Shown one piece after another: positions 56,146 through 56,802 of a DNA stretch of 64,000 bases. Every line of letters begins with the position of its first letter. The first letter of the stretch is position 1. Origin of the DNA: Escherichia coli (GTDB taxonomy: Bacteria; Pseudomonadota; Gammaproteobacteria; Enterobacterales; Enterobacteriaceae). The notes beneath the pieces were generated by a model that saw only the letters and a program-made list of their open reading frames with translations, did no database searches and had not been told where the DNA came from. The DNA lies in the NCBI RefSeq assembly GCF_001677475.2, contig NZ_CP015229.1, one strand, 5' to 3'. The position numbers and the translations under genes are program-made.

Positions 56146-56802
56146 TAAATCAGCTCCAGATGAATGCGATATGCTTTTAGAGTTACTGGATACAAAAACG
56201 GATGTCAACCCTGACGCAATAAAAACGTCCCGCCAGCGTGAGTTCTGCATCCGTAAAATTAGCTAATTGTGCTGCGGTGGTTAAAGTAAGCGATATTAAT
56301 TTCTGCTTAACTACCGACGCTTTTCATCGGTTGACATATTTCAAAATAAAATTTTGCATCTAATCAACGAGGGAAAAGGGGACAAAATGCACGCGTTGCA
56401 AAACCTATCCTGATGATTTGTATTGAATTATATGTTTTGCAGATTTTTTGATATTGATTTGGTGAATATTATTGATCAATTAATGTTAAGGATTAATGCA
56501 TTAAACATATAAATTAATTATTAAAAAGCACATTTAATCCATTTTGTGGATGATTGAGTATTCGTGGTAGTTATGATTAGATTGTTTTCGCAACAAAAAC
56601 ATTATGGATTATTATGCTGTGGTAAATGACTCTTTGCTCGGCAGTGGATTCTGTTTTTATCAGAACCCGTATCTTTATGTTTTCCTAATTTTACTCATTT
56701 TCCTTTTTCTTATTTTATATGCATGATAAATCATATTCTCGAGGATTATTTCTCTGCATTCCAATAAGGGAAAGGGAGTTAAGTGTGACAGTGGAGTTAA
56801 GT

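Follow-up and report, generated by a model that had tools for sequence, protein, structure and literature searches.

What does the AT-rich DNA between leuL and leuO of Escherichia coli do, and how much of its role can be read from the DNA itself? The locus lies in a 64,000-bp stretch of E. coli DNA (hereafter the window), for which the original prediction, made from the letters alone, had pointed to a long AT-rich divergent region with the architecture expected of an H-NS-silenced region with promoter relay. The AT-rich leuL-leuO spacer is a real feature, already known and ordinary at such a locus, and the segment is very probably the ancestral divergent control region of leuLABCD and leuO in Escherichia and its relatives.

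Positions 56146-56802 are the exact 657-bp divergent spacer that runs from the leuL start codon to the annotated leuO start codon. The genes around 56 kb are leuB, leuA, the leu leader, leuO and ilvI (starting MEMLSGAEM at 58065); the spacer has the leu leader/attenuator on one side and leuO on the other, within the leuABCD-leuL-leuO-ilvIH synteny of the orthologous locus. It is framed by the following elements:

56010-56159, minus strand: leu operon leader RNA (attenuator), Rfam RF00512 Leu_leader, 145.8 bits, E=2.8e-33.
56059-56145, minus strand: leuL CDS, ATG at 56145, 28 residues with four consecutive CTA Leu codons, from ORF translation.
56803-57747, plus strand: leuO CDS, ATG at 56803, LysR-type regulator of 314 aa as annotated, the protein 100% identical to K-12 LeuO.
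57748-58064, plus strand: leuO-ilvI spacer, 36% GC, home of the ilvIH promoter and of Lrp sites and, in the published relay, the upstream element; described from composition and literature.

The gene arrangement of the promoter relay is present, with AT-rich spacers at 56146-56802 (33% GC) and 57748-58064 (36% GC). The orthologous K-12 leuL-leuO region (b0075-b0076; NC_000913.3 83,709-84,367, between leuL annotated at 83622-83708 and leuO at 84368-85312) measures 659 bp against the 657 bp found here. The window and K-12 are 98.5% identical over 3 kb; the leader segment shows 100% identity, the leuO CDS 99.15% and the spacer 96.97%. The leader, the leuL promoter and the LeuO protein are identical, and the approximately 20 substitutions or indels are clustered at 56341-56352, 56439-56445 and 56633-56645. 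An annotated leuO is present in 5399 of 5426 complete E. coli genomes, with the same leuL-leuO arrangement. The best identity to the complete E. coli genomes of this collection does not exceed 98.9% over 1.1 kb and 97.9% over 24.5 kb, which indicates that the source lineage is without a representative in that collection; the interpretation is unaffected by this. For a wider comparison the locus was fetched from 80 species-level Enterobacteriaceae genomes with LeuO as the probe, and leuA, leuL and leuO were located in each; leuL and leuO are divergent neighbours in every species in which both flanks are on the contig.

The spacer has a GC content of 33.3% (66.7% AT) against 52.5% (47.5% AT) for the whole window. 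Among all 657-bp windows in the 64 kb only 0.08% have a GC content as low, the lowest value (33.2%) overlaps the leuL-leuO spacer itself, and the only other stretches that come close are dapB-carA and caiT-fixA. The AT-richness is not uniform: the leuL-proximal 195 bp (56146-56340), which hold the leuL promoter, have 41% GC, and 56400-56600 has 24%. The greater part of the spacer forms a core:

56341-56760, unstranded: AT-rich core, 28.8% GC (71% AT), the presumed H-NS/StpA filament region over the leuO promoters, a role taken from the literature.

A/T homopolymer runs of at least 4 number 23 in the spacer, against 10.8 +/- 2.9 in composition-matched shuffles, none of 1000 of which reached 23, while mixed W runs of at least 6 show no excess in the spacer (19 against 19.3 predicted from composition). 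TpA steps occur at 8.7 per 100 bp in the spacer compared with 4.1 in the window. A dinucleotide wedge model with Bolshoy-Trifonov parameters predicts a mean curvature of 25.2 degrees per 31 bp, compared with 16.8 for the window and 19.6 +/- 2.2 for shuffles, of which 3 of 200 were as high. Curvature peaks in the core at about 56360-56380, 56420-56460, 56540 and 56640, the peak at 56441 ranking fourth in the 64 kb; AA/TT periodicity near 10.5-11.75 bp is modest and noisy. Among the traits of H-NS-type DNA, an AT excess is present, together with A-tracts, TpA steps and curvature above the level of composition or of the window. The earlier description of about 650 bp of strongly AT-rich sequence with many short A/T tracts between leuL and leuO is thereby made exact: the length is 657 bp, the AT content lies well above the average with which it was to be compared, runs of at least four are twice as frequent as composition predicts, the curvature calculation proposed as a check places the spacer above both the window mean and the shuffles, and both gene names are correct, as seen from the Rfam match of the leader and the identity of LeuO to its K-12 counterpart.

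The regulation of leuO has been studied extensively. In E. coli the gene has at least two promoters, both repressed by H-NS and StpA: a distal one, P1, which reaches full activity only when hns and stpA are mutated, and a proximal one, P2, which BglJ-RcsB activates from a site about 57-70 bp upstream (PMC5025477, PMC3950696). LeuO inhibits the activation by BglJ-RcsB and represses in hns stpA mutants, and its sites are more than 100 bp from the BglJ-RcsB site (PMC5025477, PMC3950696); LeuO autoregulates leuO (PMC5025477, PMC3950696, PMC6698644). At steady state in the laboratory, silencing by H-NS/StpA dominates in E. coli and positive autoregulation is negligible (PMC5025477). The K-12 region comprises P1 and P2, LeuO sites I and II and the site of BglJ-RcsB (Stratmann et al. 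2012; Breddermann & Schnetz 2016). The silence of leuO in Salmonella is due to the binding of H-NS to the promoter region, where it has a well-defined nucleation site (PMC6797219), and leuO is a known H-NS-bound locus in Salmonella ChIP-seq (PMC10981669). When a cassette placed 427 bp ahead of the leuO start is transcribed, the supercoiling that results increases leuO expression more than 10-fold (PMC10981669). It is for the ilvIH-leuO-leuABCD arrangement that Fang & Wu 1998 and Chen et al. 2005 described the "promoter relay" (PMC10981669, PMC6797219), and the Salmonella relay region contains a 72-bp AT-rich silencer (AT4/AT8) and flanking LeuO sites (Chen et al. 2001, 2003, 2005); the relay was demonstrated mostly in a leu-500/topA background.

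We propose, with a high degree of confidence, that the AT-rich core is an H-NS/StpA platform over the leuO promoters with three routes of relief, the protein binding and its outcomes being taken from the literature. The AT-rich, A-tract-rich core of predicted curvature would be the platform on which H-NS (with StpA) nucleates and polymerises, and the resulting filament would occlude P1 and P2 and keep leuO off in ordinary growth; the less AT-rich leuL-proximal part would hold the constitutively strong, attenuation-controlled leu promoter. Silencing would be relieved locally by (i) the binding of BglJ-RcsB about 57 bp upstream of P2; (ii) LeuO on its own sites, which would lead to weak positive and then negative autoregulation and would form a barrier to the spread of H-NS toward the leu promoter; and (iii) negative supercoiling from neighbouring transcription (ilvIH, leuL), which would counter silencing and constitute the "promoter relay". 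The architecture of an H-NS-silenced region with promoter relay, as originally put forward, is backed by this literature and by the sequence proxies described above, and H-NS presumably occupies the spacer in the source strain as well.

The opposite end of the spacer is of a different make: the leuL-proximal 130 bp or so comprise a sigma-70 promoter of leuL and an upstream conserved box, and the other 500 bp or so are AT-rich.

56180-56208, minus strand: leuL (leuLABCD) sigma-70 promoter, -35 TTGACA at 56208-56203, 17-bp spacer, -10 TAACTC at 56185-56180, the hexamers read from the sequence.
56259-56274, unstranded: near-invariant 16-bp box TTAGCTAATTGTGCTG, including ATTGTGCTG, its centre some 95 bp ahead of the point where leuL transcription starts.

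The leuL promoter block is conserved in the 80 species and places the transcription start near 56172-56174. In K-12 a very strong sigma-70 ChIP-seq peak labelled leuLA is found at 83736.5 (PMC3688515, supplementary file 2), which maps to about 56173 of the window when coordinates are transferred by alignment. A consensus promoter scan of the spacer picked up a single plus-strand site (56587-56615), weak and unconserved, where 3.2 were expected; the leuL promoter escaped it because its -10 ends in C. LeuO binds a leuLABCD promoter fragment, and 2-isopropylmalate enhances this binding (PMC12494820).

The columns of the box TTAGCTAATTGTGCTG are 70-100% identical in the 80 species, its flanks are unconserved, and it is matched exactly in 39 of 82 loci. 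Between the box and the leuL -35 lie either 46-48 or 56-57 bp, a difference of one helical turn; a spacing that varies only by whole helical turns suggests a regulator of the leucine operon that depends on the face of the helix. The box agrees at 13 of 15 positions with the Lrp SELEX consensus, YAGHAWATTWTDCTR, a score equal to that of the site at 57807-57821 in the DNA upstream of ilvIH, a region to which Lrp is known to bind; matches to this consensus in the window (12, with 7.8 expected) are not above chance. Genomic SELEX for Lrp has a peak in the leuO-ilvI spacer (K-12 85536) and none in the leuL-leuO spacer; in an Lrp ChIP-seq study LeuO is listed among the direct targets, with the position not stated. 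Lrp may be hypothesised as a candidate factor for this box. Readings of the box as a CRP, sigma-54 or LacI-like site were rejected by eye, the second half-site being absent or the spacing wrong.

The alternative that survives best takes the AT-rich curved DNA to be mainly an upstream activating or architectural (UP-like, bent) element of the leuL promoter, with the silencing of leuO secondary. Predicted curvature does peak just upstream of the leuL promoter (56180-56200 and 56240-56280), the helically phased conserved box stands at about -95 of leuL, and Haughn et al. reportedly noted in 1986 that E. coli and Salmonella both keep a high A+T content upstream of leuABCD. The very strong sigma-70 occupancy of the leuL promoter (PMC3688515) would fit such an element too. 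However, the leuL-adjacent 56146-56340 is the least AT-rich part of the spacer, the extreme core is found 170-600 bp off, where the leuO promoters are, and in the published genetics (PMC6797219) the AT-rich element silences and does not activate. As an account of what the AT-rich DNA mainly does we consider this one unlikely; an architectural role at leuL and the silencing of leuO can coexist and are not mutually exclusive.

An H-NS/StpA platform over the leuO promoters also has to be set against the possibility that the AT-richness is the outcome of neutral drift of unconstrained non-coding DNA, with an incidental association of H-NS. Across the 80 species the spacer is 567-759 bp long, mostly 605-660, and its GC content is 0.31-0.44 compared with 0.49-0.57 for the flanking coding DNA. 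In the alignment of these species most spacer columns are poorly conserved and a few discrete islands are near-invariant. Length and GC content are thus kept while the sequence turns over, which fits selection on physical properties and argues against both neutral drift and a foreign origin. Drift would explain why the spacer is 3% diverged from K-12 compared with 0.85% for leuO, and why many columns are less than 40% conserved; it leaves aside the narrow bounds of length and GC over about 80 species despite this turnover, the two-fold excess of A/T homopolymer runs over the compositional expectation, and the dependence of experimental silencing on the AT-rich spacer DNA (PMC5025477, PMC6797219), and we regard it as very improbable.

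Four of the conserved islands fall within the AT-rich core:

56472-56497, unstranded: island TTGATCAATTAATGTTAAG (56472-56490), which overlaps ATTAATGTTAAGGATTAAT, an inverted repeat of the 7-N5-7 type with T-N11-A; candidate site of H-NS nucleation and/or LeuO core site, from conservation.
56553-56584, plus strand: island ATTGAGTATTCG..GTTATGATTAGATTG, from conservation, with TTGAGT and TATGAT as possible elements of the distal leuO promoter P1.
56672-56695, plus strand: island TCTTTATGTTTTCCTAATTTTACT, conserved in the 80 species, with an RcsB-type half site TTTTCCTA at 56680-56687; candidate BglJ-RcsB box.
56703-56738, plus strand: CTTTTTCTTATTTTATATGCATGATAAATCATATTC, the AT-rich island with the highest conservation; candidate P2 (proximal leuO promoter) core, from conservation.

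The island at 56472-56497 has the family consensus TGATAa...aaTGTTAA. The high-affinity nucleation motif of H-NS reportedly reads tCGATAAATT, as described by Lang et al. in 2007. The best match to this motif in the spacer, TTGATCAATT at 56472, agrees at 8 of 10 positions and is no better than the matches in shuffles; the orthologues of the island in Salmonella and Citrobacter, and in those genera only, read TTGATAAATT and agree at 9 of 10. The 10-bp motif is not enriched in the spacer (one match at 2 mismatches against 1.8 expected), nor do the 16 of 80 species with a match at one mismatch or fewer exceed chance (9.6 expected). Since enrichment of the H-NS motif was not above chance either in the window or across species, we dropped it as evidence. 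Inverted repeats of the 7-N5-7 type number seven against 1.6 expected. They share the geometry of the published LeuO core site, a 19-bp 7-5-7 palindrome which occurs in site I at leuO (PMC6698644); the comparison is one of geometry and not of site sequence.

The island at 56553-56584 has the family consensus TGATTGTgTATTCG...gcTTATGGTTAtATTG. In the next island the half site TTTTCCTA reads ATATTCCTA or ATATTCCGA in other genera, and it matches the core wwTTCykA of the BglJ-RcsB motif as well as the RcsAB box TaAGaa/tatTCctA in its right half (motifs: PMC3950696). The 8-mer wwTTCykA is not enriched in the window (21 occurrences against 26.8 expected) and is too short for significance. Downstream of this RcsB-like box, at the right distance for P2, lies the island at 56703-56738, in which TATAT-GCATG(G/A)TAAATCATATT is nearly invariant in the 80 species; this block is a likely core promoter. 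We infer that the islands between 56472 and 56738 may be the counterparts of elements known from publications: the LeuO sites, P1, the site of BglJ-RcsB, and P2.

Could the length of the spacer be explained by an unannotated gene for a small protein or an sRNA? Open reading frames exist on the plus strand at 56604-56726 (40 aa) and 56238-56363 (41 aa), and in K-12 the neighbouring leuO-ilvI spacer carries the 14-aa small protein YabR, a recent annotation. The 40-aa frame, however, spans the least conserved columns (identity 0.1-0.4 over 56610-56670), the conserved islands of 16-36 bp have the size of binding sites or promoters, Rfam beyond the leader gives two MIR2629 matches at the level of chance (E about 0.3-0.7), and there is no annotation inside the spacer in K-12 or in RefSeq. 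The sole coding-like signal is a 6-codon N-terminal extension of leuO. A hidden ORF or sRNA was rejected on conservation and Rfam, and we find it barely credible.

The extension concerns the 5' end of leuO:

56765-56802, plus strand: 5' end of leuO, two GGAGTTAAGT copies, one leading into GTG (56785) and the other into ATG (56803), the start as annotated; read from the sequence.

A conserved, in-frame GTG precedes the annotated ATG of leuO by 18 nt, each of the two codons having a Shine-Dalgarno sequence of its own. The intervening 15 nt are without indels in all 80 species. The upstream codon is GTG or ATG in 73 of the 80 and the downstream codon ATG or GTG in 72. Both qualify as starts in 65 species; in 8 the upstream one alone does so (as ATG), in 7 the downstream one alone, and no species is without either. 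Such a distribution suggests that translation can begin at both positions. LeuO may therefore exist in forms of 320 aa and 314 aa, or the annotated start may not be the main one; the N-terminus of the protein may be extended by the six residues VTVELS-, and as much as 18 nt of "intergenic" DNA may be coding. Should GTG 56785 be used, the non-coding spacer would be 18 nt shorter. It is possible, and we say so tentatively, that the regulator of the TTAGCTAATTGTGCTG box (Lrp or an unassigned factor) and the dual leuO start GTG 56785/ATG 56803 are uncharacterised elements; if true, this would sharpen models of how the leucine operon is controlled and of the N-terminus of LeuO.

H-NS-bound AT-rich islands are often foreign DNA, and the low GC might be left over from xenogeneic DNA gained by horizontal transfer or from a decayed mobile element between leuL and leuO. 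This reading has hardly any probability left and was rejected on synteny: from Escherichia to Kosakonia, Klebsiella and Atlantibacter, each of the 80 species has the spacer at this place with much the same length and GC, and there is no patchy distribution or insertion among them. The spacer is found in 5399 of 5426 E. coli genomes, Rfam gives no above-threshold match inside it, and its largest unconserved stretch has no indel of more than 2 bp between the window and K-12.

Read as the H-NS/StpA-silenced control region of leuO beside the leu promoter, the spacer is a textbook case, since the 1980s-1990s, of H-NS silencing, of anti-silencing by LeuO and BglJ-RcsB, and of the coupling of transcription and supercoiling, to which nothing new is added here. 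A reading based on composition picked out a real regulatory region of the H-NS type, and its worth is that of a positive control. The constancy across about 80 species illustrates selection on the physical properties of DNA over its sequence and is of modest general interest.

The closest known system is that of Salmonella Typhimurium, whose ilvIH-leuO-leuABCD region has the same gene order as the window. In the two subspecies of S. enterica compared, the spacer is 645-655 bp long with 33% GC, like that of the window. Salmonella shares the conserved islands, including the TGATAAATTAATGTTAA block, whose match to the H-NS motif is the better one in Salmonella, and the sequence between the islands is mostly different. 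Activation by BglJ-RcsB has been described for E. coli, while the promoter relay was shown in Salmonella. The bgl, proU and yjjQ-bglJ loci of E. coli likewise have AT-rich upstream DNA, long H-NS binding and specific antagonists (LeuO, BglJ-RcsB) that lift the silencing, and the H-NS-bound, AT-rich region upstream of leuO in Vibrio vulnificus bears a likeness to the E. coli spacer (PMC9728156); all of these are different loci without a sequence relationship to it. Unlike in bgl, proU and yjjQ-bglJ, the gene silenced at the leuL-leuO spacer is the anti-silencer itself, placed back to back with a highly active biosynthetic promoter.

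Gene order in the window is that of the E. coli reference strain K-12, and the segment comprising the leader and the leuL promoter is 100% identical to its K-12 counterpart. The divergent leuL-leuO spacer as a whole (56146-56802) shares 96.97% identity with the K-12 locus (L001 710-1368) and the leuO coding sequence 99.15%, the rate of divergence from K-12 being about threefold higher in the spacer than in the adjacent coding sequence. Across 5426 complete genomes, the best E. coli identity is at most 97.9% over 24.5 kb (39500-64000) and at most 98.9% over 1.1 kb (55900-57000); outside E. 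coli, the nearest species representatives in GTDB reach no more than 95.5% identity. The window probably derives from a Shigella or from a thinly sampled lineage of Escherichia. The features considered here are the following.

14233-14703: divergent caiT-fixA spacer, the second low-GC stretch, within 14096-14752
56259-56274: box TTAGCTAATTGTGCTG upstream of leuL, near-invariant across 80 Enterobacteriaceae species
56672-56738: two strongly conserved AT-rich islands upstream of leuO
56774-56805: tandem in-frame leuO start modules, GGGAGTTAAGT-GTG (56785) and GGAGTTAAGT-ATG (56803)
57748-58064: leuO-ilvI spacer, AT-rich (36% GC)

Measured from the transcription start of leuL, the centre of the TTAGCTAATTGTGCTG box lies about 95 bp upstream, and the distance of the box from the -35 element falls into two classes, 46-48 or 56-57 bp, which differ by one helical turn. 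This candidate box matches 13 of the 15 positions of the Lrp consensus; Lrp genomic SELEX lists no peak within the leuL-leuO spacer. A further match to the Lrp consensus is found at 57807 in the leuO-ilvI spacer, where two predicted curvature peaks (57865 and 58038) both rank in the top seven of the window and where K-12 carries the annotated minus-strand gene for YabR, a protein of 14 amino acids.

The leuL-leuO spacer is equalled in AT-richness by the 657-bp caiT-fixA stretch 14096-14752 (33.3% GC), which shares 98.8% identity with K-12 40000-43500. Another stretch of low GC, the third, is presumably the dapB-carA spacer; it has 36% GC and begins near 1410, downstream of the open reading frame 643-1464.

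The two leuO start codons are separated by 15 nt in all 80 species. Both positions hold a start codon in 65 species and neither in none; the upstream position is the sole start in eight, where the codon is ATG, and the downstream one in seven. This pattern suggests that a 320-amino-acid form of LeuO may exist, or that the main leuO start may be a codon other than the annotated one.

Of the two islands at 56672-56738, the first contains an RcsB-type half site, TTTTCCTA, read as ATATTCCTA in other genera, and the second reads TATATGCATG(G/A)TAAATCATATT. They probably correspond to the BglJ-RcsB box and the core of P2, the proximal leuO promoter. Conservation of both reaches well past E. coli, the species in which BglJ-RcsB activation has been described.
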